From Verrucomicrobiales bacterium (lineage in GTDB: Bacteria > Verrucomicrobiota > Verrucomicrobiia > Verrucomicrobiales > DEV007): DNA of 64,000 bases. The stretch's first letter is position 1, and each line of letters begins with the position of its first letter. The notes beneath the pieces are model-generated. The model saw only the letters and a program-made list of their open reading frames with translations. It had not been told where the DNA came from and made no database searches. Shown one piece after another: positions 5,998 through 27,811 of the stretch. Position numbers and translations under genes: made by a program. Where the stretch lies: the NCBI GenBank assembly GCA_002698785.1, contig PAAG01000002.1, positions 22,601-86,600 on the forward strand, written 5' to 3'.

Positions 5998-6707
5998 TGG
6001 ACCTGCAGTCATTCTCACCGTTCTCTCTCGTTCACATCGTCACGCTTGCTGCGTGCCTGCTCATCGCAGTCGCCACTACCCTGGCTGGGGTCCGCAGACT
6101 CAGATATCCGAGAAAGCTGCGGCTGCTGCGCAGAATGATTGTTCTTGGCTGTGTATCTGTCTGGCTCCTCAATACTTCGTTCTGGCTTCACCCAAATTAC
6201 TTCCGCTGGGAAGGCGCTCTTCCACTTCAATTTTGTAATCTGGCAAATCTCATCGGTGCTTTGGCGGTAGCTCGAAAAATACGAGTCGCTCAGTCAGTCC
6301 TCTACTTCTGGTCGTTCGCCCTATGCATCTGGGCGTTCCTCACTCCATCCCTTGACCAGGGACCTGCACGCATCGGATTCTGGATCTTCTGGGCATATCA
6401 CCTTTTCATCCTTATCTCCGTGCTGTTCGTACTGACGGTTGATCGATTTCGTCCCGCTTGGCGAGACTGCTTTTCAGCAATCGGCATCACCCTTTCTTAC
6501 ATGGCGCTCCTGGCAATCATCAACCACTTCACAGGTTGGAACTACGGATTTGTCGGCGCTGGTTCTCCCATTCATCCCAGTCCTGTCGACGCCCTCGGTC
6601 CTTACCCGTTACGCCTCGTCTGGATGGCACTCATCGGATCAGCCATCTTTATCATTCTCCTCCTTCCCTGGCTGCGATCGCATCGTTTTTCCCTTTCCGA
6701 AACGTAG
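5997..6707 (+). CDS. Polytopic membrane protein (TIGR02206/YwaF-like?)
   Basis: About 6-7 hydrophobic helices and an LPLQFCNLANL motif recalled from YwaF-type proteins. The ATG overlaps the upstream stop (TGATG). Confidence 0.5.
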   Translation: MDLQSFSPFSLVHIVTLAACLLIAVATTLAGVRRLRYPRKLRLLRRMIVLGCVSVWLLNTSFWLHPNYFRWEGALPLQFCNLANLIGALAVARKIRVAQSVLYFWSFALCIWAFLTPSLDQGPARIGFWIFWAYHLFILISVLFVLTVDRFRPAWRDCFSAIGITLSYMALLAIINHFTGWNYGFVGAGSPIHPSPVDALGPYPLRLVWMALIGSAIFIILLLPWLRSHRFSLSET

Positions 6708-6754
6708 CGTTGAATGGTATAGACCAGCCTCAAAAAAACTACCCCAACCTGCAA

Positions 6755-8104
6755 ATGACCGACGCGGAAGCAAAAGAACTGGAGACCTTCATGAATGGTC
6801 TTGAAAAACGCAACGAATACGAAGCGGAATTCCTCCAGGCAGTTGAAGAAGTCGCAACGTCAATCATGCCCTGGTACCTTCAGCACGACAGATACCGGGA
6901 TGCACAGATTCTTGAGCGAATCACAGAGCCTGACCGAATCATCATCTTCCGCGTTACATGGGAAACTGACAAAGGCGAGATTCGAGCCAACCGCGCATGG
7001 CGTGTCCAGTTCAATCACGCACTCGGCCCTTACAAAGGCGGACTGAGATTTCACCCCTCCGTAAACCAGAGCATTCTCAAGTTTCTCGGCTTCGAACAGA
7101 TCTTCAAAAACAGCCTAACCGGCCTGCCAATGGGCGGAGCAAAAGGTGGCTCCAACTTCAACCCAAAAGGAAAGAGCGATCGTGAAGTCATGAGGTTCTG
7201 TCACTCCATGATGACCGAACTGCACCGACATATCGGCGAAGACATCGATGTCCCGGCCGGAGACATCGGAGTTGGCAGTCGTGAGATCAGCTACCTCTTC
7301 GGTCAATACATGCGGTTGGAAAACCGCTGGTCCGGCGTCCTGACCGGGAAGGGACAGTCCTTTGGCGGCAGCGCAGTCCGTACCGAGGCTACCGGATGGG
7401 GATGCGTCTACTTTTGCGAACGTATGCTGAACCATCACTCTGAGTGTCTTTCCGATAAACGTGTCTCCGTCAGCGGCAGCGGAAACGTCGCTCTCTACGC
7501 AGCCCAGAAGCTCATTGAGAAAGGAGCAAAGGTCATCACATTGAGTGATTCCAGCGGCATGATCTACATCAAAGATGGTCTCTCCATGGAACAATGGGAA
7601 GACATCCGGGATCTCAAAGAAGGCAGTCGTGGACGCCTCAGCGAATACGAAAGCACCGGTATCGAATACCACGACGGGAAAGAGCCCTGGGACATTCCCT
7701 GTGACATCGCGATGCCCTGTGCCACGCAGAACGAAATCGATCGCGAAGAAGCCGAAGCGCTCGTAAAGAATGGCGTTCTCGCAGTATGCGAAGGTGCTAA
7801 CATGCCGACCACTGTAGGGGCGATTGAAGTCTTCAAAGAGAACTACATACTGCACGCACCCGGCAAGGCATCCAACGCAGGCGGCGTGGCAGTAAGTGGT
7901 CTCGAACAGAGTCAGAACGCGATGCGAATCAGTTGGGATCGTGAAGAAGTGGATAGCCGCCTTCAGGAAATCATGAAGCGAATCCACCAACGTTGCGTAG
8001 ACGAAGGACAGACCTCAAACTCCCATGTAGATTACATCGATGGATCGAATATTGGAGGCTTTAAAAAGGTCGCCGAGGCCATGCTCTCCTACGGTGCCGT
8101 CTGA
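6755..8104 (+). CDS. gdhA: NADP-specific glutamate dehydrogenase
   Basis: Full-length GDH similarity (EFLQAVEEV, RVQFNHALGPYKGGLRFHP, PMGGAKGGSNFNPKGKS, GSGNVALYAAQK). The start is set at ATG 6755, giving 449 aa. The upstream part of the tracked ORF overlaps the membrane gene. Confidence 0.95.
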   Translation: MTDAEAKELETFMNGLEKRNEYEAEFLQAVEEVATSIMPWYLQHDRYRDAQILERITEPDRIIIFRVTWETDKGEIRANRAWRVQFNHALGPYKGGLRFHPSVNQSILKFLGFEQIFKNSLTGLPMGGAKGGSNFNPKGKSDREVMRFCHSMMTELHRHIGEDIDVPAGDIGVGSREISYLFGQYMRLENRWSGVLTGKGQSFGGSAVRTEATGWGCVYFCERMLNHHSECLSDKRVSVSGSGNVALYAAQKLIEKGAKVITLSDSSGMIYIKDGLSMEQWEDIRDLKEGSRGRLSEYESTGIEYHDGKEPWDIPCDIAMPCATQNEIDREEAEALVKNGVLAVCEGANMPTTVGAIEVFKENYILHAPGKASNAGGVAVSGLEQSQNAMRISWDREEVDSRLQEIMKRIHQRCVDEGQTSNSHVDYIDGSNIGGFKKVAEAMLSYGAV

Positions 8105-9386: not shown

Positions 9387-9637
9387 CGCAGAGCTGGGAA
9401 TCTTCTCCCGGCCTGCGCCTTCCTCGCCCCTGACCACCTAAAAAGGGCCAGCGTGATCTCGTTTTGCGTCATCAGACACAATCCCGTGTCGATGTTATAC
9501 ATATAATTACCAAAATTACTTTTACTTTCCCTTGTTTACCAATTTCATTAATGAGAAGCATAATTGAGTCTAAATCTCAAATTCAATACAACATCGCTAC
9601 GTCCGCAAAAGATTATCCGGTTAGCGACCTGCCGACC

Positions 9638-10783
9638 ATGGCCAAAGCGTTTCGCGAGAGCGGATACGAAACGCCGAGCTATGTCCTCGACCACGCGGCT
9701 TATCACCGCAACGGACGCATTCTGAAGGAAGTTCAAGATGCTACTGGCGCTCGCATCATCCTGGCGCAAAAGGCTTTTGCCTGCTTTCACCTCTACCCCA
9801 CCCTTCGTAACTACCTGGCAGGCACAGCTGCCAGCGGTCTTCACGAAGCTCGTCTCGGTGCAGAGGAATTTGGTGGCGAGGTTCACGTATTCTCTCCGGC
9901 CTACAAGCCTAAGGAGATGGCAGAGCTTCTCAAAATCTCTGACCACATTGTCTTCAACTCTCTCAGCCAGTGGACTCGCTACCGCGACGAAGTCTTGGCA
10001 AACACCCGCAAGGTGTCTCCTGGTCTTCGCATTAATCCCGAGTATGCGGAAGCCGTCGCAGAGATCTACAACCCCTGCGCACCTGGCTCTCGATTCGGCG
10101 TTCTCGCTGAATTGATGAACGAGAACGACTTCAAAGGCATCGAAGGACTTCACTTCCACACACTTTGCGAGCAGGGCGCTGACGCGCTTGAGCGTACGCT
10201 CGAAGCAGTGGTCGCGAAATTCGACTGCTGGATCAAGAAAGTGAAATGGGTCAACTTCGGTGGCGGTCATCTCATCACCTCTCCTGGATATGACGTGGAG
10301 CTTCTGATCAAAGTGATCAAAGATTTCCAGGCGAGATATCCTCATCTTCAAATCTACCTCGAACCCGGTGAAGCGATCGCCAGCGATGGCGGCGTTCTGG
10401 TTGGTTCTGTTATCGATATCGTCGAAAACGGAATGCAGGTCGCTGTTCTCGATGTGTCGGCTACAGCTCACATGCCCGACGTATTGGAGATGCCTTATCG
10501 CCCCAGCGTTCTTGGCAGCGGCAAACCCGGCGCCAAGAAATACACCTACCGTTTCGGTGGCCCCACCTGTTTGTCCGGCGACGTGATCGGCGACTACAGC
10601 TTTAACGAACCACTCAAGATCGGAGATCAGATCGTGTTCCACGACATGGCTCACTACACCATCGTCAAGAACACCACCTTCAACGGAGTTCCTCTCCCGA
10701 GCATCTCCATCCTCCAGGAAACTGGTGAAGTCGAACTCATCCGCGAATTCGACTACGACGACTACAAATGTCGTTTGGGATAA
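9638..10783 (+). CDS. nspC: Carboxynorspermidine/carboxyspermidine decarboxylase
   Basis: Alanine racemase-fold decarboxylase motifs (HFHTLCEQ, NFGGGH, GGPTCLSGDVIG). Starting at ATG 9638 gives 381 aa, typical for NspC; an alternative ATG is at 9551. Confidence 0.85.
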   Translation: MAKAFRESGYETPSYVLDHAAYHRNGRILKEVQDATGARIILAQKAFACFHLYPTLRNYLAGTAASGLHEARLGAEEFGGEVHVFSPAYKPKEMAELLKISDHIVFNSLSQWTRYRDEVLANTRKVSPGLRINPEYAEAVAEIYNPCAPGSRFGVLAELMNENDFKGIEGLHFHTLCEQGADALERTLEAVVAKFDCWIKKVKWVNFGGGHLITSPGYDVELLIKVIKDFQARYPHLQIYLEPGEAIASDGGVLVGSVIDIVENGMQVAVLDVSATAHMPDVLEMPYRPSVLGSGKPGAKKYTYRFGGPTCLSGDVIGDYSFNEPLKIGDQIVFHDMAHYTIVKNTTFNGVPLPSISILQETGEVELIREFDYDDYKCRLG

Positions 10784-10857: not shown

Positions 10858-12258
10858 TTACGCAAAGATTCCGTCGACCACTTCGCCGTAGACATCGGTG
10901 AGGCGGAAGTCGCGACCGGCGTATTGGTAGGTCAGCTTTAGGTGGTCGATTCCTAACAGGTGCAGGATGGTGGCGTGCATGTCGTGCATGTGAACTTTGT
11001 CCTTCACGGCGTAGTAGCCGAAGTCGTCGGTCTCGCCGTAGGAGAAGCCACCTTTGACTCCGCCACCAGCCATCCACATGGAAAAGCCCTGCGGGTTGTG
11101 GTCGCGGCCGTCGCCGCCCTGGATGATCGGAGTCCGTCCAAACTCGCCGCCCCAGACGACCAATGTATCTTCCAAAAGCCCACGCTGTTTGAGATCGGTC
11201 AGCAGACCGGAGATCGGTTTGTCTACGGCGAGAGCGTTCTTGGTATGGCCTTTCACGAGTCCGCCATGCTGATCCCAAACATTCGGAGTCGATACCTGGA
11301 TGTAGCGAACACCTGCCTCTGCAAAGCGACGAGCCATGAGACACTGGCGTCCGTAGGTGTCGGTCTCCTTGGTGCCGATTCCATACATCTCTTTGATGTG
11401 CTCGGGCTCGTCTTTGGTGTCAATGACAGGAGGAGCCGAGGCCTGCATCCGATAGGCCATCTCCATGGATTGAATCATGCCCTCGACTGGAGCGTATTTC
11501 GTACGCTCGTAGTGCTCGCGATTCATCTTCTGCAGGAAGGCCAGCTTCTTCGCCTGCACATCATCGGATGATTTCGCTTTGAGGAACTTGAAGGTCGCGT
11601 TCTCATCGAGCTTTCCATTTCCACCGATCGTTGTCGCCTGATGCGCCGCCGGCAAAAAGGCCGAACCGTAGTTACGCGGTCCGCCGTGAGATGCCGAAGG
11701 ACTGATACTGACAAACCCGGGAAGATCGCTGTTCTCCGTTCCGAGACCGTAGCTCACCCATGAGCCTACTGACGGACGCACAAAGTTATCGGTTCCTGTA
11801 TGAAGCATGCAGACAGCTTGACCGTGTGACTGCCCCTTGCTTTGCATCGAACGCATTAAGCACAGGTCGTCAGCGTGCTGTGCCGTGTGTGGAAAGAGAT
11901 CGCTGATCCAGAGGCCTGACTGCCCTCGCTGCTTGAACTCCCACGCCGAGCCCATCAACTTCGCCTGCCGCGTTGCTGATGGATCGAGGTTTTTCGCTGG
12001 AGCGAATGGAAGCTTGCCGCCGTCTCGCTTATTCAGTTCCGGCTTGTAGTCGAAAGAGTCCACATGCGAGGGACCACCGTGCATGAACAGAAAAATCACA
12101 CGCTTAGCACGTGGCGCATGGTGATACCCCTGTCCGGCTGCTTGTGCCATTCCTGACAATGCCATAGCCCCGAACCCACAGCCCGCGGCTTGGAGCAGCT
12201 TTCTCCGAGACCAGGTCGGAGCGTCGAAATGATTGCATGCGGTATTGAAGGGGCTCAT
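10858..12258 (-). CDS. DUF1501 (sulfatase-like) domain protein with Tat-type signal
   Basis: N-terminal [18 protein letters not shown]. Conserved blocks: [28 protein letters not shown]-like ([10 protein letters not shown]), [17 protein letters not shown]. Paralogue of 54747-56129. Confidence 0.9.
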
Positions 12259-12259
12259 A

Positions 12260-15133
12260 TCAATCGAGGTAAAGAAATTCAGTCGAAGCCATCAGCACGT
12301 GGGCCAGCTCTCCGCAGGCTTCCTTGATGTCTTCCGGGTATTCGCTCGCTCCACTCAGCGCAGCGATTAATCCAAGGGAACGCTGCATCTCAGCATCCGA
12401 AGGAGCACGTCCGAGAAGCGAGCGATACAGCCATTTCACTTCCTCTCCGGGAAGCTTCGCATTTTCCATGGCCAGCACTCCGAGCTTCTCCGCCTGCTCG
12501 TGCACGAAGTCGCTGTTTAAAAGGTAGAGTGCCTGCGTAGGAACCGTGGTTTGGTTGCGGCGTCCGGATACCACATCCGGATTCGCTGCGTCGAAAACGG
12601 CGAGCTCTGTAGCCGCGTTGTTTCGGGCCACCGGCAGATACACAGTTCGCTTCTGGTATTTGGAAAAGGAGAACGGTTTGTCCAGATCGATCCCGAAAGG
12701 AGTCGCGGTCGCCTTGCCCTTCTCTCGGTCCAGCTCACCTGACAGGGCCAGAACGCTGTCCCGGATTTCTTCCGCAGTCAGTCGTCGGCGATTCTGTTTT
12801 CCGAAAAGCTGATTGGTGGGATCCACCTTCACCAGCTCGTCGGTTGGGTTACAGCTCAATCGGTAGGCATGACTTAGCACGAGCTCGCGCACCATCGTTT
12901 TCACCGACCCATTGTTCGCACGGAACTCAGCGGCGAGGTAGTCGAGCAGTTCAGGATGAGTTGGTCCTGTTCCCAATCGCCCAAAGTTGTCGACCGTTGC
13001 CACAATGCCCCGCCCGAAAAGGTGGTGCCAGATTCGATTGACCATGACGCGGTCTAACAAAGCATTCTCCTCACTCACCATCCACTCGGCGAGTTCCATG
13101 CGCCCGCTATCACCTTCTGCGATCTGGGGAGCGTCACCAGTGTGAAGGACTTGGAGGAAATTGCGCGGGATCTTGTCCCCGAGTTGCCCGACCTCACCGC
13201 GCACTCGCAAATTGATGTCGTCCGAGTTCTTCGCATCGCGTGGAGCCATCGCGACCTCCGCGTCTTTCAGCTCTCCGATGAGGCGATTCAGCTCTTTCTT
13301 CAGATCGCCCTCACTCATGAGGTGGAGGGCATCTTTGTCCCCGCCCATTCCTGATAGCGCTTTCGCTTCTCGCTCGATGTCATTCACCGGAATGAACTGC
13401 ACCGCATCGACGATCACAAAGCTGCCTTCGGTGCCTGTCGTCTCGACGATGACCTGGCACTTCCCGCCCTTTTCAAAGGTGAAACGTCCCACTGGTTCGA
13501 ACAGGCCGCCGATCGACGGCTTCTTTGTTTCATCGAGATACACGCGGTGATCACCATCGCGAGCCTCGACTTTGATTGGCACATTCTTCGCCCGGTTCGC
13601 CTCGGCACTGTAGGCGAGACGAATCTCATACTCCCCGCTCTCAGGGAGGCTTCCTCGGAAAATGGCGCAGTTCGTTCCTTTGCCTGGAGCATCGTTTTCA
13701 TCCACGATATATCCGTCGCCGAAACGATTGCCGGACAGACTCGACTTTCGCCACGGCCCAATCAACTCGGCATCGGCTTCGTCATAAATCACGCCCGCGA
13801 GAGGTAGATTATCGAGAGACATCTTGCCTCCCGCTTTCTTCATGAAACTCTTCTCCACCGTCAGTCGCATCGCCAGCTCGAGGCGCTCAACCGTTGCCTT
13901 GGTCTTTTCGGCTTCCGGTCCCTCCATCGGCAATGGGCGCTCGATCCAGCTCGCGACATTTACACATCCGTTCCGCGTGCCGGTGACCACTTCCGTAGAA
14001 CGGAAAATCCCGGCCATCGCATAGTAGTCCTCCTGCGAAACAGGATCGAACTTGTGATCGTGACAACGGGCACACCCGAGTGTCAGGCCGAGAAACGCGC
14101 GACCGGTCGTGTCCAGCTGCTCGTCTGCCGTGTCGAGCCAGAGCTTTTCCTTGTCGCGCTCGGTAAGCATCTTCGGACCGAGTGCAAGAAAAGTCGACGC
14201 AACCAACTGTTCGCGTCGCTCTTCTGGACTTGCCGCATGCATCAGGTCGCCAGCCAGCTGCATCCTGACAAAATCATAGTAGGACACATCTTTGTTGAAG
14301 GCATCGATCACCCAGTTCCGATACCGCCATGCCTGGTAGAAAGTGAAGTTTCGGTCGCCACCGTTCGAGTCAGCATACCGAGCAACGTCCAGCCAGTGCC
14401 GCCCCCACTTTTCGCCAAAGCCCGGACGCGACAGAAGATCGTCCACGATCGCCGCAAGCGATTCGCGTGAGGGATCGGCGACAAAAGCATCTACTTCCTC
14501 AGGAGTCGGAGGAAGCCCGATCAAATCGAAATACAAACGTCGCAGAAGCACAGCGGGCTCCGCATCCGAGGTAGGTTTCACCCCTGCCTCTTCCAGGTTC
14601 GCCAAGATGAATCGATCCGTCTCCGTATCGGCCCATTCCGAGTTCGGCACAGATGGCACTTCTGCTTTTTCGATAGGACGGTAGGCCCAGCCTTGGCGAG
14701 CAGCCTCAAAATCAATCTCATCCTGCACCGCACCAGCGAGCGCTTCGTCACGTGGGTCTGGAGCACCCATGGCGATCCAATCTTCCAGGATCTTCACCTC
14801 TTCGTCCGAGAGCTTGCTCTTCGGTGGCATCTGCAAATCCTCATCAGCATATCGGATCGAGTGAATGAACAGACTCCCATCGACATCCCCCGGAACGATG
14901 GATGCGCCGGCGTCACCACCGATCGCCCAGCCCGCTTTGCGATCCAGCCACAGGCCGCCCTTTTGCTTCCCCGCTTCCTCCGAGTGGCACTCGTAGCAAC
15001 GCTGTACCAGGATGGGTCGGACTTTGTTCTCAAAATAGGCGAAGCCTTCTGTTCCTTCCGAGGGAACGATTGTCAGAAAGCCTGTAGCTACGGCCAGGCC
15101 AAAGCCGGAAGCGATGCGGGGGAAATTCGCCAT
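12260..15133 (-). CDS. PSCyt1/DUF1549/DUF1553 (PSD1-type) protein
   Basis: [19 protein letters not shown] (planctomycete cytochrome c motif), [16 protein letters not shown] (DUF1549) and [18 protein letters not shown] (DUF1553). Its stop lies 1 nt before the DUF1501 start. Confidence 0.9.
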
Positions 15134-15360: not shown

Positions 15361-15731
15361 TGGGCGGCGGATATTTTGAGGAGAAAGGAAACTCAGGGAG
15401 AAGATTGCATGCCTCCATTCTAACGGAACACCAATAAAATGTCGAGCTTAGGAGGCATCCACTGGGATTTCGCGGACTGGGAATGATTTTGAGATGGAAT
15501 GGGGCATCGCGCTCAGCGCAGGGCAGATGTCCAAATTCTTTTGGACCTCTTGATTGCTATTTTGCATCTCTCTCCATAGCACGACATCGTCCTGAAATCA
15601 CCTTCACCCCTTAGTTTGTGTTATTTAGAGATTTACACATCAATCCTCCAAGAGACAACTTGGCTATTGTTTCCTGTTACGTTTCCCTATATTGATATTC
15701 GGTTCCTATAATACTACTGTTATCCCTAAAA

Positions 15732-16130
15732 ATGGCCTACCAGATTCACATCATCCCGCGCGAAGACCTTCAGACTGCCGATACTTGGAAATTCGTTGTC
15801 GACGAGTGTGAGGGCGTTCGTTTGGCGTCTGGTGAAGGCAGCGTTGTCGTTAATCCGAAAACCGGAGAGGAGATCCGTATTGGTGGTTCCTCTACTGATG
15901 CAGAGATTCATTTCCCTGATGAGGATGCTTGGTATCCAGCTCTATTCTGGAGACGCGGACGCGCATCGATCAATGCCAGGTTTGAGATGGGGGACGAGAC
16001 AGATCCCGCATGGCGCGTTGTCAGTTGGCTTGCACAGCGTCTTGACGGTGAGATCCAAGGTGACGAAGGCGAGGTGTTTGATTGTGTGACCGGTCAGATG
16101 GTCCGTGATCATTTGGGACGGGACGTGTGA
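15732..16130 (+). CDS. Hypothetical small acidic protein
   Basis: 132-aa ORF with no recognised motif. It is the first ORF of the same-strand run. Confidence 0.55.
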   Translation: MAYQIHIIPREDLQTADTWKFVVDECEGVRLASGEGSVVVNPKTGEEIRIGGSSTDAEIHFPDEDAWYPALFWRRGRASINARFEMGDETDPAWRVVSWLAQRLDGEIQGDEGEVFDCVTGQMVRDHLGRDV

Positions 16131-16264
16131 CCAAAACCGGGGAGAAAAAGCCGGAGATGGCAAGCCCGATCCCGCCGCGAGTTGATTGACTTCTGAAATA
16201 GGAATCCTTACTCTGAGTTCGAGATCGCACTCCTACATGGGCGGGGATCTCTTGAACGTTCGGC
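16131..16264 (+). repeat. Inter-ORF repeat copy 1 (about 134 nt)
   Basis: Starts right after the TGA. Its 5' part (CCAAAACCGGGGAGAAAAAGCCGGAGATGGCAAGCCC) is homologous to 16665-16702. It contains internal GGAATCCTTA and ends in CTTGAACGTTCGGC, 13 nt before ATG 16278. Confidence 0.7.
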
Positions 16265-16277
16265 TGAAAAAATACTC

Positions 16278-16724
16278 ATGAGACTATTCTGTATCGCGAT
16301 CACCGTTTACTGTTCGAGTTTGTTGCTCGCTGACGAAAAGGCTGTCCCCCACTCCTCACATAGGAATTCCAGTCCACTCAGTAATTCGGGCATCGGAGCC
16401 GTAGTCGACAAAGATCGACAGACCGGTAATTTGAAGGTTTTTAAAACGGTGGAAGGCGGCCCAGCCGCAAAAGCTGGATTGCTTGCTAATGATGAGATCG
16501 TAGCGATCGACTCGGAGGATACGACGGAAATGAGTTTGGAAGTAGCAGTCAGATTGTTGCGAGGAAAACAGGGCACCGCAGTAAGACTTGCCGTAAAGCG
16601 CTCTGGTGTGCCCGATATCATTCAATACAAAGTTACTCGCCAAATTCTCCCTCAACCGTCGCCAGCAAAACCGGTGCCGAACAAGCCAGCGATGGCAAGC
16701 CCTAGACCGTTTCGTCCCGGTTGA
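16278..16724 (+). CDS. Secreted PDZ-domain protein
   Basis: Signal-like N-terminus and a PDZ core (GIGAVVDKDRQTGNLKVFKTVEGGPAAKAGLLANDEIVAIDSEDT...LRGKQGTAVRLAVKR). The last ~18 codons lie inside repeat copy 2. Confidence 0.75.
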   Translation: MRLFCIAITVYCSSLLLADEKAVPHSSHRNSSPLSNSGIGAVVDKDRQTGNLKVFKTVEGGPAAKAGLLANDEIVAIDSEDTTEMSLEVAVRLLRGKQGTAVRLAVKRSGVPDIIQYKVTRQILPQPSPAKPVPNKPAMASPRPFRPG

Positions 16725-16800
16725 GTGTTGTATTTCGAATCCTTAATTTGCTAACGAAGTTGCGGTCTCGTCCCGGGCTGCCATGCTTCGAACGTTCGGC
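16665..16800 (+). repeat. Inter-ORF repeat copy 2, the best attC-like candidate (core 16676-16800, 125 nt)
   Basis: GCCGAAC (16676-16682) is the exact reverse complement of GTTCGGC (16794-16800). The inner stem pairs GCGATGGCAAGCCC (16689-16702) with GGGCTGCCATGC (16775-16786), leaving two single bulged bases. Further inner pairs are AGACCG/CGGTCT and TTTCGT/ACGAAG. Confidence 0.6.
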
Positions 16801-16806
16801 TCAGCA

Positions 16807-17151
16807 ATGGCTCTACTAAAGACAGTTCACTGGCGATTTCGGTGCCCCAAGCAAATTGATGGAGTTGCTAAAGATTTCGTCGAGTGGATCAGCCGAGATA
16901 TTGATCCTTCAAATCTCGATTTTGATTCTGCATTTGTCGAATTCCACGATCCGTGGTTTGCATGGCGAAGAATGATCGCTACGCGGTATGGTATTGCATC
17001 GAATTACAGATCGCCGAACGGAGTTCCTGCTAAACCGGCTTGGAATCGGAAGCTTCGTAAGCGGAATAGCGATCTGACACCTGAGCAGCTTGTCGAGCGG
17101 GTCTTCGAGAGAGTCGTTGTTCGTCTGAGGCGCACCAAACTGTCCCACTGA
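16807..17151 (+). CDS. Hypothetical protein
   Basis: ORF with no recognised domain. The start is placed at ATG 16807, just after the repeat end; the tracked start 16783 lies inside the repeat. Confidence 0.5.
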   Translation: MALLKTVHWRFRCPKQIDGVAKDFVEWISRDIDPSNLDFDSAFVEFHDPWFAWRRMIATRYGIASNYRSPNGVPAKPAWNRKLRKRNSDLTPEQLVERVFERVVVRLRRTKLSH

Positions 17152-17283
17152 ACAAGTCGAATAATGTTCTGGAGAGAAATCGCCTACCCACTCCGACTCG
17201 ACGCTCTTTGACAATTAGAATCCTCACCCTCGGCTCCAAGGCTCGCCTCCCGGTTGGTGATCCCTAAGCTTTGAACGTTCGGC
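17147..17283 (+). repeat. Inter-ORF repeat copy 3 (about 137 nt)
   Basis: ACTGAAC-AAG overlaps the stop codon (compare GCCGAAC-AAG in copy 2). CTGGAGAGAAATCGCC resembles CCGGGGAGAAAAAGCC of copy 1. It contains internal AGAATCCTCA and ends in CTTTGAACGTTCGGC, 12 nt before ATG 17296. Confidence 0.65.
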
Positions 17284-17295
17284 AAAACAATTTCC

Positions 17296-18003
17296 ATGTA
17301 TACCCCTCCAAACTTCAGGATCGACGACCGAGAGGTAATTCGTCAATTCATCAGCGAAAACTCGTTGGGTCTGTTGTTGTCGGTCCGGGATGGAGTCATC
17401 CATGACACCCACACTCCATTCCTTATTTCCGATTGTGGACAGCATCTCCTCGGACACATAGCCAGAGCCAACGCCCACTGGCATGACTGGGAAGAGGACT
17501 CAACTGCGAAGGTTATTTTTACTGGTCCGCACGCCTACGTTTCCCCGCGTTACTACGAATCAGAATTCGCGGTGCCCACCTGGAACTACACAGCCGTTTC
17601 CATTTCGGGCCGAATCGCTTTGATCGAAAAAACCGAAGCCAAACTCGATTTTCTGGATAGGCTCACGTCTGCCAACGAGTCCTCCGATAGCCCATGGACT
17701 CTGGATCGATCCGACGAACGATATCTCAACCTGCTTTCCGGTATCGTAGTTTTTTCGGTATCGATCGATTCGATTGAGGCTTCATTCAAACTGAACCAGA
17801 ATAAGAGTATTGAAGATCAACGGAAGGTGGTCGCATCGTTGACTGAGACAGGATGTCCGTTTGACCACGCTGTCGCGTTGCTTATGGAGAACAACATAGC
17901 CGATGCCGAGCAGGACGGTGGCGGGGAATCGGCAGCCCGCACCAAATCAGATCTGAAGAGTGGCGACAAACCTCAACCAGAATCGGAGGGAGGCGCCCGG
18001 TAG
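17296..18003 (+). CDS. PaiB-family FMN-binding putative transcriptional regulator
   Basis: MYTPPNFRIDDREVIRQFISENSLGLLLS, YVSPRYY and FKLNQNK blocks are typical of PaiB. The ~30-aa low-complexity C-terminal tail extends into a degenerate repeat copy. Confidence 0.8.
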   Translation: MYTPPNFRIDDREVIRQFISENSLGLLLSVRDGVIHDTHTPFLISDCGQHLLGHIARANAHWHDWEEDSTAKVIFTGPHAYVSPRYYESEFAVPTWNYTAVSISGRIALIEKTEAKLDFLDRLTSANESSDSPWTLDRSDERYLNLLSGIVVFSVSIDSIEASFKLNQNKSIEDQRKVVASLTETGCPFDHAVALLMENNIADAEQDGGGESAARTKSDLKSGDKPQPESEGGAR

Positions 18004-18035
18004 CGGGTGCCGGGCCTCAAACGTTCTGCAACAAT

Positions 18036-18479
18036 ATGCGAAATGCGGTCGCAATATCGATCATTCTAATCAGCGCGGTCGGGCTCTTCTTTGCCCTGGG
18101 TTGGTTGGGCATGCTTCCTCGAAGCCGGGTTATCGTTGTTCCTGATGGTTTCACCGGAGAGGTTGTCATCGCGTATCACCCAACCATTGGAAAGTCATTC
18201 AACGGCCGCCCTTTCAATTTTGGGACGACACGCATCATTATTCCCGAGGATGGAAATCTGATCATCTCTGATTGGGACGAGTTCGGAGGAATGAGTTCTG
18301 AAAAGTATATCAGGCAAGATGGGACCATTCTCGGTGGGACTCACCCATGGGCCGGAACTTCCAAAATCAAGACGAAAGGAACAATGGGGCGGAATCCGGG
18401 GGATGATGAACCTTTTCTAAAATCAGCAATGTTGGATGACGATTCTGTCATGTATTCGGGCTTCACCGTCCTAAAATAA
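18036..18479 (+). CDS. Hypothetical membrane-anchored protein
   Basis: Single N-terminal TM helix and no recognised domain. AAACGTTCTGC (18019-18029) lies 6 nt upstream of the ATG. Confidence 0.5.
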   Translation: MRNAVAISIILISAVGLFFALGWLGMLPRSRVIVVPDGFTGEVVIAYHPTIGKSFNGRPFNFGTTRIIIPEDGNLIISDWDEFGGMSSEKYIRQDGTILGGTHPWAGTSKIKTKGTMGRNPGDDEPFLKSAMLDDDSVMYSGFTVLK

Positions 18480-18588
18480 CTCGAGCCCAACAAACCTCTC
18501 TACCCCGCGCCAAGTCAAAAACGCGCTCCTGCAAACATTCGATGAAAGAAACTGGCTGATCCCCCGGTAGCGTTTCTCATACCTTCGA

Positions 18589-19263
18589 ATGAGAGCACGC
18601 TTTCCATACCGGATATTACGTCAAGGCCCCGTCATTTGGAATCGTGCGACTTTACTCTCAAGTATTTTGCTGGTTCTACTCTCGGTCACTGGCTGCACCA
18701 CGACACCGCCTCCCGCAAAGAATGCGCAAGCGATCGATCTCGAGCCTGATGATCACGGTCGCTACATGAAATGCGGTTGGTATTGCGGAGCGCCGCCTAT
18801 GAGCGTCTCCGCGACCTCGACCTTTCATGACGGGATCTACTCCTACTCTGCCGAGAACCTCCATGATTGTCGAAAGGACACTGCGTGGGTGGAAGGCATC
18901 GGTGGAGACGGCCACGGCGAACGGATCATATTCACGTTTGATATGACAGAGCGGACGCCAGGAAGCCATGAGATTGGTGTGGGGAGCGTATCCATCATCA
19001 ACGGTTTCGCGAGGTCGAAGAAACAGTGGGAGGCCAATTCGCGGGTGAAGACGTTCAAGATCTATTTCGACGGCGAGTATCTCGATACGGTCGAGCTGGA
19101 GGATACCCGAGAACCCCAGCGGGTGCAGTTACCCAAAATGGCGTTCATCCCCGGCAAGAAGCACGAGATAGCATTCGAAATCGACACGATCTATCCCGGC
19201 ACGAATTTCTACTACACTGCGGTGTCCGATTTTCTCTTCGATGGGTTTGGGGTGAGGCATTGA
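18589..19263 (+). CDS. Lipoprotein, possibly with NADase-type/discoidin-like glycan-binding domain
   Basis: Lipobox LLSVTGC. YSAENLHDCRKDTAWVEGIGGDGHGERIIFTF...IINGFARSKKQWEANSRVKTFKIYFDG resembles, from memory, the galactose-binding-like domain pattern. Confidence 0.5.
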   Translation: MRARFPYRILRQGPVIWNRATLLSSILLVLLSVTGCTTTPPPAKNAQAIDLEPDDHGRYMKCGWYCGAPPMSVSATSTFHDGIYSYSAENLHDCRKDTAWVEGIGGDGHGERIIFTFDMTERTPGSHEIGVGSVSIINGFARSKKQWEANSRVKTFKIYFDGEYLDTVELEDTREPQRVQLPKMAFIPGKKHEIAFEIDTIYPGTNFYYTAVSDFLFDGFGVRH

Positions 19264-19406
19264 GAAATGTGATTCTATGTAGTCACACACTCCGCCACCA
19301 GGTGGATGCAGCTAACTCAACGCTCCGAACATTTGCTGAAAGTCGATTCAAGCACACCGCAACATGTTGACGGGACTCTCGGGTAATCCACTTTGTCTGA
19401 GCAACT

Positions 19407-19856
19407 ATGGAAGGATATGACGATGACTATCCCACTTGTGCCGACACTTTCGCCACGCTGAGGTTCTATCATGAGGCGTGCACTCCCGACGCTGTGACCG
19501 AGGCGCTGGGTATCTCGCCATCGAGGACGCAGGCTAAGGGGCAAAACACCGTAAATGGGAAACAAGTACAACGACGTGTCTCGGGCTGGTTCCTCTGTTC
19601 GAGAGACGAGGTTCAATCGAAAGACATCCGGCGCCATATCGACTGGATCCTCGATCAAGTTTCTGAGTTGAGGAATGAGTTTGTTCGCCTGAACCAAGAA
19701 GGCTGGCGCTCTGATATCTCATGCTATTGGCTGAGCCATGGGCACGGAGGTCCCATGCTATCCCCTTCTCAGATGGAATCTCTAGCGAAGCTGAACCTGA
19801 CGTGCGGTTTCGACGTGTATTTTGAAGAGGATAGTGCTGAGGCCCCTGCTTCTTGA
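19407..19856 (+). CDS. DUF4279-family protein
   Basis: CADTFATLRFYHEACTPDAVTEALGISPSRTQAKG matches the DUF4279 N-terminal pattern as I recall it. Confidence 0.55.
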   Translation: MEGYDDDYPTCADTFATLRFYHEACTPDAVTEALGISPSRTQAKGQNTVNGKQVQRRVSGWFLCSRDEVQSKDIRRHIDWILDQVSELRNEFVRLNQEGWRSDISCYWLSHGHGGPMLSPSQMESLAKLNLTCGFDVYFEEDSAEAPAS

Positions 19857-19952
19857 CGGTGTAATGTTCGTTATTTTACCGGCAGAGTTGTTTCTCAGGG
19901 CACTCGCTCGCTACCAGAAAAGGCGCTATTGTAGATATGAAATAAGCTGATC

Positions 19953-20243
19953 ATGTCTCCAGCGCTGTATCGATTCTTCGTCGCCGAACTTGGATCCCTT
20001 CTGGGTTTGATTTTCATGCCCAAGCATGGGTGCACCCTGTCATCCCCTCCGCTCGAAATTATGTTCTTGGGTATTTGCTTCATCCTGATTCCGTGGATGT
20101 GCTTACGACTCGATAATTCCAAACTCGCGTGGGGGCTCGCTGCATCGACATTGGTAATCACCGTCTTGCTCGGTACTGTTTACATCGAGGTCATTCACTG
20201 GGATCACTATCCCGAGCGCTTCCTGGCCGGGCAGCACCTGTAG
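19953..20243 (+). CDS. Hypothetical small membrane protein
   Basis: 96-aa ORF with 3 hydrophobic segments. Confidence 0.4.
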   Translation: MSPALYRFFVAELGSLLGLIFMPKHGCTLSSPPLEIMFLGICFILIPWMCLRLDNSKLAWGLAASTLVITVLLGTVYIEVIHWDHYPERFLAGQHL

Positions 20244-20452
20244 ACTCGACTGTGCAATCCATTTTGTCCCATGCCGAAAAAGACGATATGAGGCGAACAG
20301 TTGACTTCGACTTCGCGGATCACGTTAGTGAGCTTTCCTTATATCCTCGAACTAGCTATACTCCCCCGAAACATTCTCTTTTTCTTACATGATATTCCGG
20401 TGAGTTGCGGTCCGCGGCGCATCTCAATACGGCAGCTTTTCATATCAAATAA

Positions 20453-21772
20453 ATGTCCCATCGCAGCATCGCCATTTTCGTCTTCTGCGTCAGCGGGGTC
20501 GCTTTGCTGGCCGTAACGCTATCTACCTCGAAATGGCTGAAGAGCCGACCTAGGTGGGAGCTTTCGGCGGTAAATTCTGAGAAAGGTGTTGAGATCTCCG
20601 TGTTTCTCAAAGGAAAGAACCAACCAGTTCACTCTACGATGCTGGAAGGTCGAGAAATCGCCCATGATGTCCACCGCGTTACCGTCAATGAACTTCCACC
20701 CGGAATCGGAGAATCGACATTTGTCGACGAAACCATTCCTCCAGGACGATGGGTTCTGACTATCGATGGTGTGGAGTTAGACATTATGGAGTCGCGTTTC
20801 TTGGTCGAAACCGGAGAGGCCAAGACTATTGACATAGATGACACCGCTGAAGGAAACCAGTCGAAGAGAGGTAGCATTTACCCGCCACCAGAGAGGATTG
20901 GAGACTGGACCACGATTCGAGAGCGATTCGAGAGTTGGGATTTTGTCGAATTTCTCTATGCAGGGGAAGCTGCTGATGGAGGTTCCCATGGGTTTCTTTT
21001 CACGACCCCCGATGGAGCCGAAATCGAAATTTCGGTGGTGTGCAGTACTTGGTGGACGGAAGAAGATGCAAGAAGACGGCACCAACCAATCTATCTCTCC
21101 TGTGAAGGAAAAGAGTATTTGGTTCCTGAAAATGGGGAGATCGAAAATACGCTTCTCGAAATCCTAGACATGGCAGCCGCTAGCCTGACTGGTGAGGGGC
21201 GAAGGAATCCGAAATACATTCGACGCCTGCGAGAAACCATCGCGACCCGCACAATTCCCGACGATACCTGGCCTTACGACAAGCTCGATGCCGACGATGA
21301 TCTCGGTGACTGGATCGAAACTCAGGATCGCCTTAAGAGCTGGGAAACGGTCGAACTGCAAGATTGGGGCAATCTTGGCGATCTCATCTCGACCCGATTT
21401 CAGTTTCGATCTTCAACCGGAGATGAGTTTGGCATTGTGGTAGCTTCTCCCGATTGGCTGCCGGATGAAGAAGAAATCTCAGCCAACTCGGAACCTGAGC
21501 AACCGACTGATCCCTTTGCTGAGGATTATGATGAAGAAATAACTCGGATGCTGATACTCGTCCATTTTGGAAGAAAGCTCTTTCTAGTGGAGGAAGGGAG
21601 CGATATCGAAGCTGAGTTGCTGGGAATGCTCGACAGGGCTGCGGTGAATTCGAAAGGAGTGGGCATTTCACATCCAAAATACGTTCAGCGACTGCGAGAG
21701 GTGGTTGCGACACGCGTGCCGAGCAGCTACATGCATTGGCCGATGACTGATGAGGAGGTAGAGGGAGAATAG
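20453..21772 (+). CDS. Hypothetical membrane-anchored protein with internal domain duplication
   Basis: N-terminal TM helix. Two homologous ~120-140 aa modules occupy residues ~149-268 and ~284-423, each running from GDW...SW to HPKY(I/V)(R/Q)RLRE..ATR. Confidence 0.6.
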   Translation: MSHRSIAIFVFCVSGVALLAVTLSTSKWLKSRPRWELSAVNSEKGVEISVFLKGKNQPVHSTMLEGREIAHDVHRVTVNELPPGIGESTFVDETIPPGRWVLTIDGVELDIMESRFLVETGEAKTIDIDDTAEGNQSKRGSIYPPPERIGDWTTIRERFESWDFVEFLYAGEAADGGSHGFLFTTPDGAEIEISVVCSTWWTEEDARRRHQPIYLSCEGKEYLVPENGEIENTLLEILDMAAASLTGEGRRNPKYIRRLRETIATRTIPDDTWPYDKLDADDDLGDWIETQDRLKSWETVELQDWGNLGDLISTRFQFRSSTGDEFGIVVASPDWLPDEEEISANSEPEQPTDPFAEDYDEEITRMLILVHFGRKLFLVEEGSDIEAELLGMLDRAAVNSKGVGISHPKYVQRLREVVATRVPSSYMHWPMTDEEVEGE

Positions 21773-21799
21773 CTCTGTGTCTCTTGTTTCTAAATTACT

Positions 21800-22095
21800 A
21801 TGTACCACCTTACATTCGACACTGTCCCGACGATCGAGAATGATGAATTCTCGACCTTAGACTGAGCAATCGTAGTCGCCTGGATTCCCTCGGAAGATGC
21901 GATTGATTTAGATGACGCTGAGAGGTTGGCCAGAGCTCACATCGAGAAACACCAGTGGTTTATCAAATCCCTCGATGAGGCATCCATAATTGACGAGGAG
22001 ATCTACGAACCTCGTGATGAGCATCGTGAATTTTTCGAGACAGCTTTGTCGGGTGAACAAGAATTGGTCTTCTATACCTTTCCTGATTCGGATTA
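21800..22095 (+). pseudogene. Small-protein gene interrupted by an in-frame TGA
   Basis: ATG 21800 reads MYHLTFDTVPTIENDEFSTLD, then TGA (21863-21865), then continues in frame as AIVVAWIPSEDAIDLDDAERLARAHIEKHQWFIKSLDE...ELVFYTFPDSD to TAG 22093-22095. Confidence 0.55.
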
Positions 22096-22183
22096 GTTTC
22101 CCTTTTTGGGGAGAGGCATTTTAATGATTACCCTTCCCACCATTCGGAGAGCAGTTTAGGGAGGGATTGAAGTAGATTCTCGA

Positions 22184-24061: not shown

Positions 24062-25303
24062 ATGTCATCCCTTTCCCCCCAGCGTGCCGATCAGCTTCGT
24101 GAAATCGCGAGCGAGTATGGAACTCCGACGTATGTCTATGATGCGGAGGTCATCCGAAAGCAGTTCCGTCGGCTGAAGAAGTTCGACATTGTTCGCTTCG
24201 CCCAGAAGGCTTGCTCGAACACGCATATTCTGCGCCTGCTTCGGGAGGAGGGTGCGGTGGTGGACTGTGTATCGGCCGGGGAGCTGGACCGTGCGCTTGC
24301 TGCGGGATTCGAGCCGGGTGCGGATCCGGCGCAGATTGTTTTCACGGCAGATATCATCACGCCAGACGCGATTGAGCGCGTGGTGGAGCTGGGTGTGCCT
24401 GTGAATGCGGGCTCTCCTGATATGCTGACGCAGATCGGTGAAGCGAATCCGGGACATCCGGTCTGGCTGCGGATCAATCCAGGATTTGGCCACGGTCACA
24501 GTAAGAAGACGAACACGGGCGGTGAATCGAGCAAGCACGGCATCTGGCACGAGAATATCCACGAAGCGCTGGAGCTGATCGACAAATACAATCTGAAGCT
24601 CGTCGGTATCCATATGCACATCGGATCGGGCGCGGAGATCGATCACCTCTCCCGCGTGTGCGATGCGATGGTGGAGCAGGTGAAGACGGCAGGACGCGAC
24701 ATCGAGGCGATCTCTGGCGGAGGTGGCCTTTCTATCCCCTACTCTCCGAATGATCCGGAGGTGGATGTGGATGCGTATTTTGATAAGTGGGACGAAGCAC
24801 GTCGCCACGTGGAAGAGATCGTGGGACACAAGGTCCATCTCGAGCTGGAGCCGGGGCGTTTCCTCGCGGCGCAGGCGGGATCTCTGATCGCTGAGGTGCG
24901 TGGACAAAAGCAGACGGGCTCGAATCGCTATGTGCTGGTGGACGCGGGTTTCAACGACTTGATGCGGCCGGTGATGTATGGCTCTCGCCACGAGATGGAG
25001 TTGCTGCCTCATGATGGTCGTGACATGGATGCCCCGACTCCGACGGTGGTGGCGGGTCCGCTCTGTGAAAGCGGTGATATTTTTACCCAGCTCCCGGGTG
25101 GAGATGTGGACGCGCGTCCCCTGCCCCCGACGGAAACCGGTGACCTGCTGGTCTTCAAAGATGCGGGTGCCTATGGCTCGGTGATGGCGAGTAACTACAA
25201 CTCACGCCCCCTGGCTGCCGAAGTGATGATCGATGGAGATGACATCCGCCTGATCCGCCGACGCCAGACGATCGAAGATCTACTGGCGCTGGAGGAGGTG
25301 TAG
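24062..25303 (+). CDS. lysA: Diaminopimelate decarboxylase
   Basis: PTYVYDAEVIRKQF, FAQKACSN (PLP lysine), HMHIGSG, EPGRFLAAQAG and GPLCESGD blocks; 413 aa. Confidence 0.92.
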   Translation: MSSLSPQRADQLREIASEYGTPTYVYDAEVIRKQFRRLKKFDIVRFAQKACSNTHILRLLREEGAVVDCVSAGELDRALAAGFEPGADPAQIVFTADIITPDAIERVVELGVPVNAGSPDMLTQIGEANPGHPVWLRINPGFGHGHSKKTNTGGESSKHGIWHENIHEALELIDKYNLKLVGIHMHIGSGAEIDHLSRVCDAMVEQVKTAGRDIEAISGGGGLSIPYSPNDPEVDVDAYFDKWDEARRHVEEIVGHKVHLELEPGRFLAAQAGSLIAEVRGQKQTGSNRYVLVDAGFNDLMRPVMYGSRHEMELLPHDGRDMDAPTPTVVAGPLCESGDIFTQLPGGDVDARPLPPTETGDLLVFKDAGAYGSVMASNYNSRPLAAEVMIDGDDIRLIRRRQTIEDLLALEEV

Positions 25304-26226: not shown

Positions 26227-26619
26227 ATGCCAAACTTCAACATCAAGTGCCTCGTATCAGGATCCGAAACGGACGGAAAAGTTGCCGTCTTTGAAGAAGT
26301 CGTCAAACCGGGAGCGGGTCCTCCCCGCCACACTCACCGCGATCAGATCGAAGTGTTTCATGTGATGTCGGGAACGTTTCAGTTCGAAGTCGATGGAGAG
26401 GTTATCGAGCGAAGCACGGGCGGCACGGCAGTCGTTCCAGCGAAGGCAGTCCACGCGTTCCGGAATGTCGGTGATACGACTGGAACGGTGCGGTTCGAGT
26501 TGCTCCCTGCCGGGAATTCGGAGGAGTTTTTCCACAGGATCGTGAATGAAGAGATCGAGGATTTCCGAACGTTCTTCAATGAGTATGGGCTGGATCTTTC
26601 CGGTCCACCGATGGGGTGA
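26227..26619 (+). CDS. Cupin-domain protein
   Basis: 130 aa with cupin motifs GAGPPRHTHRDQIEVFHV and VPAKAVHAFRN. Confidence 0.75.
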   Translation: MPNFNIKCLVSGSETDGKVAVFEEVVKPGAGPPRHTHRDQIEVFHVMSGTFQFEVDGEVIERSTGGTAVVPAKAVHAFRNVGDTTGTVRFELLPAGNSEEFFHRIVNEEIEDFRTFFNEYGLDLSGPPMG

Positions 26620-26688
26620 GGTTGATTGGAGCGAAAGACTCCCCGAAAAACGTTCGCTCAATTTTGTAGTATCCGCTATTGTGGAAGG

Positions 26689-26898
26689 ATGACGGTGGAA
26701 GAAGTCAATCAACTCCCGACTGAAGAAAAGGTTCTTTTGATGGAGGCTCTCTGGGCTGATCTGCGGGAGAGATTTGAAGCCGCCGACATTCCCCAAGAGC
26801 ACAGAGAGATTCTCGACGCGAGGAGATCAAAAGTAGAGGCGGGTGAAATGAAGATCTTGGCGTGGGACGATGTGAAGTCCACCATCGGTCGCCGATGA
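26689..26898 (+). CDS. Addiction-module antitoxin
   Basis: MTVEEVNQLPTEEKVLLMEALWADL... Its stop overlaps the toxin start (ATGA at 26895-26898). Confidence 0.75.
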   Translation: MTVEEVNQLPTEEKVLLMEALWADLRERFEAADIPQEHREILDARRSKVEAGEMKILAWDDVKSTIGRR

Positions 26899-27271: not shown

Positions 27272-27811
27272 ATGTCTGATACCCCTAATGATCCCGAACG
27301 CACCGAGGCGTTTCTTCGGCTCCTGAGCGAGCATGAGAAGAAGCTGGGGATCTATGTGACTGGACTGGTAGCGTGCCCGCAGGATGGGCAGGATATTCTG
27401 CAGGAGGGAAAGATCGTGATGTGGCGGCAGTTCCACCAGTTCGAGCTGGGAACGAACTTCGCGGCATGGGCTCGGAAGATCCTCTTTTACCAGATCCTGG
27501 CTCACCGCCGGAAATCGAAGCGGGACAAAGCCGAACTGCTGAGTGAGAAGATGCTGGAGTCGCTCAGCGAAGAGGCCGAGTCAGCGATACGCGAACAGCG
27601 CTGGCAGAAACGGGAGGCAGTTCTGAAGCAATGCGTCACAAAGCTGAGCGAGGATCACCGCGAGATCCTACTGATGCGATACCGCGATGAATCGTCCATC
27701 GAAGGTATCTCTCGTCGGACCGAAAGAACGGAGGGTGCGGTGTATCGCCTGCTGAGCCGCCTCCGCAAGAACCTCTACCAATGTGTAGAAAAAGAGCTCG
27801 AAAAGGCCTGA
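27272..27811 (+). CDS. ECF-type RNA polymerase sigma factor (PVC Sig70_gvs1-like)
   Basis: Region 2 (AFLRLLSEHEKKLGIYVTGLV...QDILQEGKIVMWRQF...FAAWARKILFYQIL) and region 4 (EILLMRYRDESSIEGISRRTERTEGAVYRLLSRLRKNL). Confidence 0.88.
   Translation: MSDTPNDPERTEAFLRLLSEHEKKLGIYVTGLVACPQDGQDILQEGKIVMWRQFHQFELGTNFAAWARKILFYQILAHRRKSKRDKAELLSEKMLESLSEEAESAIREQRWQKREAVLKQCVTKLSEDHREILLMRYRDESSIEGISRRTERTEGAVYRLLSRLRKNLYQCVEKELEKA

Follow-up and report, generated by a model that had tools for sequence, protein, structure and literature searches.

The recombination sites with which the present locus is best compared are the Vibrio cholerae repeats (VCR, approximately 123–133 nt), which belong to a sedentary chromosomal integron, the short attC sites found in mobile integrons (attCaadA7, for example), and the attC sites of Planctomycetes, for which a model has been published (Ghaly et al. 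2021, PMC8352920). According to the rules set out by Nivina et al. 2016 (PMC5027507), the extrahelical bases of an attC site lie at positions 16 and 23/24, a 6-bp stem separates the first from the last of them, the spacers are of five to six bases and the length falls between 57 and 141 bp. Arrays are also known in which the sites stand alone: attC site clusters without an integron integrase (CALIN) were defined by Cury et al. 2016 (PMC4889954) as two or more attC sites that cluster within 4 kb and have no integron integrase in their vicinity. In that survey, which already records integrons in Verrucomicrobia, CALINs are typically small, 83% of them comprising fewer than six sites. Here we consider a 125-nt element at positions 16676–16800 of a 64,000-nt stretch of DNA (hereafter the window; contig PAAG01000002.1 of assembly GCA_002698785.1) from a marine ‘Verrucomicrobiales bacterium’ metagenome-assembled genome (MAG), in which an attC-like fold had been read by hand from the sequence (the original prediction). 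We are highly confident that this element is the attC site of an integron gene cassette and a member of a conserved family of such sites, approximately 125 nt in length, in marine Verrucomicrobiales. The argument runs through family membership, structure, covariation, a rule of complementarity at cassette boundaries, and strain breakpoints that fall at core sites.

The element is the second of four sites in the window and will be called site 2. On the top (+) strand it begins with the R'' box GCCGAAC (16676–16682), the inverse core with its AAC triplet, followed by the unpaired central spacer AAGCC (16683–16687; family consensus AAGRC) and the 5' arm of the L stem, AGC(G)ATGGCA(A)GCCC (16688–16702), in which the bracketed bases are the extrahelical G16691 and A16698. 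A variable terminal region (16703–16774) leads to the 3' arm, GGGC TGCCAT GCT (16775–16787, placed by fold and covariation), the second unpaired central spacer TCGAAC (16788–16793) and the R' box GTTCGGC (16794–16800), within which the crossover would lie between G16794 and T16795. Both spacers are delimited by the family alignments A6 and A9. The order of parts is thus an R'' of 7 nt, a spacer of 5 nt, 3 bp, a bulge at element position 16, 6 bp, a bulge at position 23, the remaining stem with its variable loop, a spacer of 6 nt and an R' of 7 nt.

Folding of both strands with DNA parameters gives the R-box helix, the internal loop and the bulged stem in the minimum-free-energy (MFE) as well as the centroid structure. 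The perfect complementarity of the two R boxes that had been noted by eye (7/7) is therefore paired in both kinds of fold; each box departs from the R/Y consensus (RYYYAAC/GTTRRRY) at one position, and the two departures compensate each other. The 12-bp stem is likewise borne out, GC(G)ATGGCA(A)GCCC (16689–16702) pairing with GGGCTGCCATGC (16775–16786) and leaving two single bases on the 5' arm unpaired, with 6 bp between them, so that the MFE structures support the proposed pairing of R and L boxes. Two details required amendment. The central spacers are unpaired, as proposed, but they are 5 and 6 nt long rather than 6 and 7, each being one nucleotide shorter because A16688 and T16787 form a further pair that covaries in the family (the equivalent pair, position 13–114, is GC in seven sites and AU in two). 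The proposed inner stems, AGACCG/CGGTCT and TTTCGT/ACGAAG, are present in the top-strand MFE structure but lie outside the conserved family stem (alignment A6), in the variable terminal region. This region also holds a motif conserved in the subfamily, GAATCCTTA (16737–45), and the stop codon of the preceding open reading frame (ORF), which encodes a PDZ domain; the TGA, at 16722–16724, lies inside the element, as had been said. The conserved loop motifs GAGTTGATTGAC and GAATCCTTA could carry some further function, for example as a host-factor site or an internal promoter.

The geometry of site 2 agrees with the rules of Nivina et al. 2016 (PMC5027507), and the assignment to a canonical attC layout stands, the 125 nt falling inside the published range. 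With attCaadA7 it shares extrahelical bases at 16 and 23/24, the 6-bp stem and spacers of 5–6 nt (PMC5027507); it differs from the short attC sites of mobile integrons in length (125 as against 57–70 nt) and in its first bottom-strand extrahelical base, which is C where G is usual. The bottom-strand extrahelical bases of site 2 are C (opposite G16691) and T (opposite A16698), the last being the conserved T. The likeness to the VCR is one of general build: long sites with a large variable terminal structure, high conservation within the lineage, an R box, unpaired spacers, extrahelical bases on the R''–L'' arm and one same-strand ORF per site. The sequence family here is nevertheless unrelated, the host is a member of the Verrucomicrobiales, and there are only four sites with no adjacent integrase. 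VCR2 has three extrahelical bases (G16, T20, T24; PMC5027507), whereas most sites of the present family have two (bottom-strand C and T). The Planctomycetes model of Ghaly et al. 2021 (PMC8352920) has the same layout, a similar R'' (GCCUAAC, compared with GCCGAAC here), a spacer that starts with AA, and an unpaired base at position 16, on the top strand usually G. In contrast, its near-invariant L-box bases U15, A18, U86 and A88 are not kept here, and the L boxes here are without the GTT/AAC-like motif of the Planctomycetes consensus. The window sites form a separate, Verrucomicrobiales family and do not belong to the Planctomycetes one.

Relatives of site 2 were found by several routes. The pattern GAATCCTYA...GAACGTTCGGC gave 24 matches in JGI metagenomes, only one of which, at a locus designated L041, is genuine (E 3e-19); in 185,579 species genomes it gave 14 single matches, all judged to be chance. 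The L041 site is also 125 nt long with the same two bulges, and its stem carries a compensated change, ATCTCA/TGAGAT in place of ATGGCA/TGCCAT. A homologue of its cassette protein (78% identity) led to L048, a locus in another Verrucomicrobiales MAG (GCA_029213065.1). There, twelve small ORFs, all on the same strand, come after a tyrosine recombinase that passes the NCBIfam model for integron integrases, TIGR02249 (323 bits; cutoff 265). A hidden Markov model (HMM) built from only three window copies finds just those three by sequence within the window, and it matches the intergenic spacers of the L048 array with E-values down to 2e-21. Since these spacers lie beside an integron integrase, the window repeats are of the same attC family as the sites of a complete integron.

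Two features of L048 may be mentioned in passing. Its integrase ORF (6411–7808, minus strand) gives 465 aa if a TTG codon is taken as its start, the gene call being 341 aa, and homologues in Verrucomicrobiales are mostly of 400–475 aa, compared with 320–340 aa for the usual IntI; the reading suggests an N-terminal extension of approximately 100–130 aa. Two of its sites (12057–12183 and 13704–13829) have a third unpaired base, an A, in the 6-bp stem and resemble VCR2 and attCoxa2, which have three extrahelical bases (PMC5027507).

A covariance model, R3, was made from only 11 attC sites of L048, that is, from an integrase-linked array in another genome, and the window was scanned with filters off. 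Site 2 is matched over the whole model (1–125 of 125) at 77.7 bits, E 1.7e-15, with all modelled pairs standard except the two innermost. The matches are exactly the four sites, nothing else in the window falling below E 0.7. The E-values for the three copies of the original prediction are all significant: 2e-15 for 16676–16800, 6e-11 for copy 1 and 3e-6 for copy 3.

There is further evidence in the pattern of substitution. Across 12 family sites, drawn from several MAGs and contigs, mean column identity is 71%. Pairing in the L stem stands at 95.8%; double changes are seen in 13 of its 14 pairs, and none is changed on one side only. No shuffle among 500 reaches the observed covariation score of the stem, and control alignments in which the partner was slid by 1–3 columns are at most 34% paired. 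G16 and A23 are invariant unpaired columns. The same picture is obtained from the 11 L048 sites alone, in which 14 of 15 stem pairs carry compensatory changes.

The boundaries of the cassettes provide evidence of another kind. Because an integron cassette exists for a time as a circle and is recombined at G|TT, one expects each R'' to be complementary to the R' of the site before it and not to the R' of its own site. At L048, successive R'' boxes match the preceding R' at 7, 7, 7, 6, 7, 6, 7, 7, 7, 7 and 6 of 7 positions (7/7 in eight of 11), and their own R' at only 3–6 of 7. The rule also holds, at 7/7, in L041, L043 and L051; at L041, for example, the site upstream of the cassette has GTTGGGC as its R', and the R'' of the 125-nt site, GCCCAAC, is perfectly complementary to it. 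In the window, the match is 7/7 for site 2 (with the R' at 16258–16264), 6/7 for site 4 and 5/7 for site 3. It should be noted that the match for site 2, which is equally 7/7 with its own R', does not discriminate, the R' boxes of sites 1–3 being identical.

Comparison with related strains shows where the locus has been rearranged. L050 is from a related strain, in which the array is flanked by the same genes and the sequence is approximately 95% identical to the window. The two are collinear as far as GTTCG in the R' of site 2 (16798), after which L050 has unrelated cassettes. The first differing cassette of L050 ends in a site with the R'' AGCGAAC, which is complementary to the junction of L050 itself, G|TTCGCT. 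The left junction of L050 has TTTCTCC, to which the R'' equivalent of site 1 in the window, GGAGAAA, is perfectly complementary. A second related strain, L051, matches window positions 15723–16798 at 97% identity, the homology starting inside the left junction, GTTATCC. Here the block of ORF1, site 1, PDZ ORF and site 2 sits behind two other cassettes with high-scoring sites, and an attC of 88.8 bits ends exactly at the left-junction position of the block. The block is thus known in three different contexts (window, L050 and L051), in all of which site 1 is already degenerate. From these breakpoints it follows that the 1,075-bp block 15720–16794 behaves as one two-gene cassette, with site 2 as its working attC.

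How site 2 would act is set out here in terms of established attC biology; the way it is cleaved, any activity at the present day and the origin of the integrase are inferences. The minus (bottom) strand, when single-stranded, would fold into a hairpin closed by the pairing of R' and R'', with the C opposite G16691 and the T opposite A16698 extruded from the L stem. An integron integrase would recognise the shape of the hairpin and cleave the bottom strand at AAC, equivalent to G16794|T16795 on the top strand, and the cleaved strand would then be exchanged with another attC, giving excision, or with an attI, giving insertion. Site 2 closes the two-gene unit 15720–16794, and any recombination would need an integrase encoded elsewhere or supplied from outside. 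The assignment of the plus strand as top and the minus strand as recombinogenic is consistent with the direction of the ORFs.

The window array consists of four co-oriented sites within 1.9 kb. Its four ORFs are short and on the plus strand, one per site, with an ATG 7–14 nt past an R'. The array begins at the left junction GTTATCC (15719–15725), followed by a leader CTAAAA and then the ATG, with no attC or integrase upstream. The two-gene block (15720–16794; nominal cassettes 15720–16258 and 16259–16794) comprises ORF1 (15732–16130; 132 aa, without a Pfam match), site 1, the PDZ ORF (16278–16724; Pfam PDZ_6) and site 2. Cassette 3 (16795–17277) has an ORF from 16807 (or 16783) to 17151 with no Pfam match, and cassette 4 (17278–18023) has an ORF at 17296–18003 with an FMN_bind_2 domain; neither is in L050. 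Exact copies of GAACGTTCGGC at 16254, 16790 and 17273 have a cassette-like spacing, 0.03 being expected by our own arithmetic. An A-rich leader lies between R' and start codon, conserved in family cassettes as CTAGAAAATG and GAAGAAAATG and present in the window as CTAAAAATG (15726–15734); it is seen just after each R' in L048, L043, L041, L051 and the window, and may be a lineage-specific context for translation initiation.

The other three sites are degenerate. Site 1 (16141–16264; R3 57.3 bits, E 6e-11) has many non-standard pairs: its R'' equivalent is GGAGAAA (16141–16147), three of its six mid-stem pairs are broken, and its R' is GTTCGGC (16258–16264). Site 3 (17156–17283; 36.8 bits, E 2.6e-6) has lost the outer and middle stem but retains the inner stem ATCGCC/GGTGAT; its R'' equivalent, GTCGAAT (17156–17162), differs from GCCGAAC by two C-to-T changes, and its R' is GTTCGGC (17277–17283). 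Neither of these two copies folds into an attC-like hairpin (z +1.1 and +2.5, respectively). Site 4 (17905–18029; R3 28.2 bits, E 2.2e-4; R2 26.3 bits), an addition to what had been noticed earlier, is the most degenerate: it has GCCGAGC as R'' equivalent, AGGAC as spacer and GTTCTGC (18023–18029) as R', and its stems are out of register, yet unpaired G and A are still found at positions 16 and 23. It overlaps the 3' end of the FMN_bind_2 ORF. The AAC of R'' has thus become AAA, AAT and AGC in sites 1, 3 and 4, and the GTT of R' is kept in all four sites. These sequences suggest that site 2 would still be a competent substrate if an integrase were supplied, and that sites 1, 3 and 4 would be impaired.

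The suspicion that copies 1 and 3 are decayed was therefore justified, but their R'' boxes are not the CCAAAAC and ACTGAAC put forward with it, and the limits given for the copies (16131–16264 and 17147–17283) are replaced by the model-aligned 16141–16264 and 17156–17283. Boxes further upstream, CCAAAAC, GCAAAAC and ACTGAAC, which RNAalifold suggested on the three copies, were rejected as true R'' because the inner box is the R'' according to the family alignment, the canonical spacing and the cassette rule alike. Four other stretches considered as further sites were judged to be chance: 32449–32571 (inside an ORF of 1007 aa), 17971–18106 (template scan only), 27642–27758 (without AAC/GTT) and 37277–37332 (crude scan only). 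The intergenic segments 18483–18545, 19264–19406, 19857–19952 and 15600–15727 have no attC-like fold and no model match.

A number of observations weigh against the identification of site 2 as an attC site, or against its being in use, and they are best considered with the explanations that they favour. The fold energy of site 2 is no better than that of shuffled sequences (z −0.9 for the bottom strand and −1.8 for the top), and the bottom strand is not the stabler (−20.2 compared with −20.55 kcal/mol; in the L041 homologue the values are −24.0 for bottom and −19.5 for top). A crude palindrome scan gives scores like that of site 2 in approximately one-fifth of shuffled windows. A hairpin read by hand is in itself insufficient to establish an attC, and the significance of site 2 comes from homology, covariation and covariance-model scores, not from stability. 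The z-scores and the palindrome scan would favour a chance intergenic palindrome, an explanation that is refuted by the L048 matches, the covariation and the R3 E-values, which range from 2e-15 to 2e-4 over four sites in one orientation and spaced like cassettes, as well as by the three exact copies of GAACGTTCGGC against the 0.03 expected; we regard it as next to inconceivable. Other points concern the match to described attC sites. The first extrahelical base of site 2 is the unusual C mentioned above. The published Planctomycetes filter HMM, transcribed from Supplementary Data 1 of Ghaly et al. 2021 (PMC8352920), gives no match at the window sites with nhmmer even at E ≤ 100. The Planctomycetes covariance model itself was represented by a surrogate, R1, re-estimated from sequences sampled from that HMM and run with filters off; it ranks 16676–16800 first in the window and aligns it end to end, at 13.3 bits, but the score is marginal (E 0.08). 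It might be supposed that the copies are a generic intergenic repeat with no tie to integrons, be it a repetitive extragenic palindrome, a miniature inverted-repeat transposable element, a terminator-like hairpin or a structured RNA of a 3' untranslated region. They are indeed intergenic and palindromic, with conserved loop motifs in common, and covariation alone cannot tell a DNA hairpin from an RNA hairpin. However, the same family fills an array beside a TIGR02249 integron integrase, the complementarity of R'' to the preceding R' is explained only by a circular cassette intermediate, and the strain breakpoints fall at G|TT. In addition, none of the sites is called terminator-like, an Rfam scan of the 64-kb window at gathering scores gave no matches, and there are neither target-site duplications nor terminal inverted repeats beyond the attC arms. 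A generic repeat is therefore very improbable.

The alternative that is still live is about activity and not about attC identity. The array may be a fossil, its sites attC by descent that nothing now recombines, with site 2 as the least decayed relic of a dead, domesticated array. There is no integron integrase or remnant of one in the 64-kb window, as judged by tblastn with the L048 IntI and IntI1; three of the four window sites are degenerate, with mutated AAC triplets and broken stems; the degeneration of site 1 is shared by L050 and L051; and four marine metagenome contigs carry the locus at 100% identity, so that no ongoing turnover is visible within the strain. Against this, the R boxes of site 2 still match at 7/7 and of its modelled stem pairs only the two innermost are lost, integron integrases occur widely in Verrucomicrobiales, where thousands are annotated, and related strains differ by whole cassettes exactly at the R' core of site 2, so the site was used fairly recently. 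We consider a dead array to be a real possibility, although an unlikely one, and continue to treat 16676–16800 as an attC site that could still be recombined.

With no integrase in the window, an observation that, like site 4 and the phylum of the host, adds to the original prediction, the array is a CALIN. It has the make-up described for that class by Cury et al. 2016 (PMC4889954) and lacks the adjacent intI of a complete integron. It resembles CALINs in being small and co-oriented, with no intI or recognisable intI pseudogene nearby; it differs from those of Cury et al. in that its sites are recognised by family-specific models and not by the IntegronFinder model, and in that three of the four are visibly degenerate. 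The closest IntI homologue looked up (P0019) belongs to another assembly. Upstream of the array are 598 bp and then a divergent PSD1/PSCyt gene; this region has no similarity to the integrase-proximal region of L048, that is, no attI homology. The flanking genes include PSD1/PSCyt and DUF1501 (Pfam), which at first pointed to a planctomycete; that origin was given up for Verrucomicrobiales because the exact window proteins are deposited at NCBI under that name, as MAS91590–MAS91596. Another array of this attC family, likewise without an integrase, is L043 (9868–11718 of a 123-kb contig), which adjoins sulfatase, DUF1501 and PSD1 genes; thus the family lacks a nearby integrase at more than one locus.

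The wider surroundings of the array are also variable. Compared with L050, the variable region extends over 18535–22111: a block with NADase_transloc (18535–19270) is common to both strains and begins in both at ATTCGAT, an R'-like box with A for G, and 19271–21691 is replaced in L050. The breakpoints after 19270 and at 21692 have no recognisable attC. Two Unstab_antitox (addiction-module) genes, at 22.4–22.7 kb (minus strand) and 26.7–26.9 kb (plus strand), lie in or just beyond the variable region, which is flanked by paralogous Orn/DAP/Arg decarboxylase genes (9464–10783 and 24062–25303). On the minus strand, GAGTTGATTGACTTCT (26698–26713) is identical to 16 nt of the conserved loop motif of the family, and GCGAACGTTTTTC and GAACGTTCGGA (26564–26574) are found near it on the same strand, among Cupin_2 and antitoxin genes. 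The region 26560–26715, which has no covariance-model match, may be a fragment left by a family site in inverted orientation. A fourth exact copy of GAACGTTCGGC (approximately 0.03 expected) is at 48679–48689, just upstream of the ATG of a possible minus-strand ORF that resembles a signal peptide; it has no attC-like partner and no model match.

For annotation, the consequence is that the array, which standard pipelines present only as hypothetical genes, is correctly labelled as a short cassette array (CALIN). Now that a well-conserved attC family of approximately 125 nt from marine Verrucomicrobiales is defined, with a seed alignment and clear covariation, attC sites outside Proteobacteria could become easier to detect; those of this family are overlooked by the published Planctomycetes profile. 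What is known of the working of integrons is unchanged, and the locus is in this respect an ordinary new example of a well-known system. The two-gene block is of use for the study of cassette fusion and loss of mobility: it is one block in three contexts, with breakpoints at the cores and decayed neighbouring sites, and ORF1 and the PDZ gene now move as a single two-gene cassette bounded by one intact site. If the changes in AAC had been selected and had not merely drifted, the degenerate sites would represent fixation of cassettes and a natural example of fusion and immobilisation, or domestication, a suggestion that we regard as doubtful. The interest of the finding lies mainly in this apparent cassette fusion and immobilisation, in a widely sampled marine lineage of the Verrucomicrobiales.

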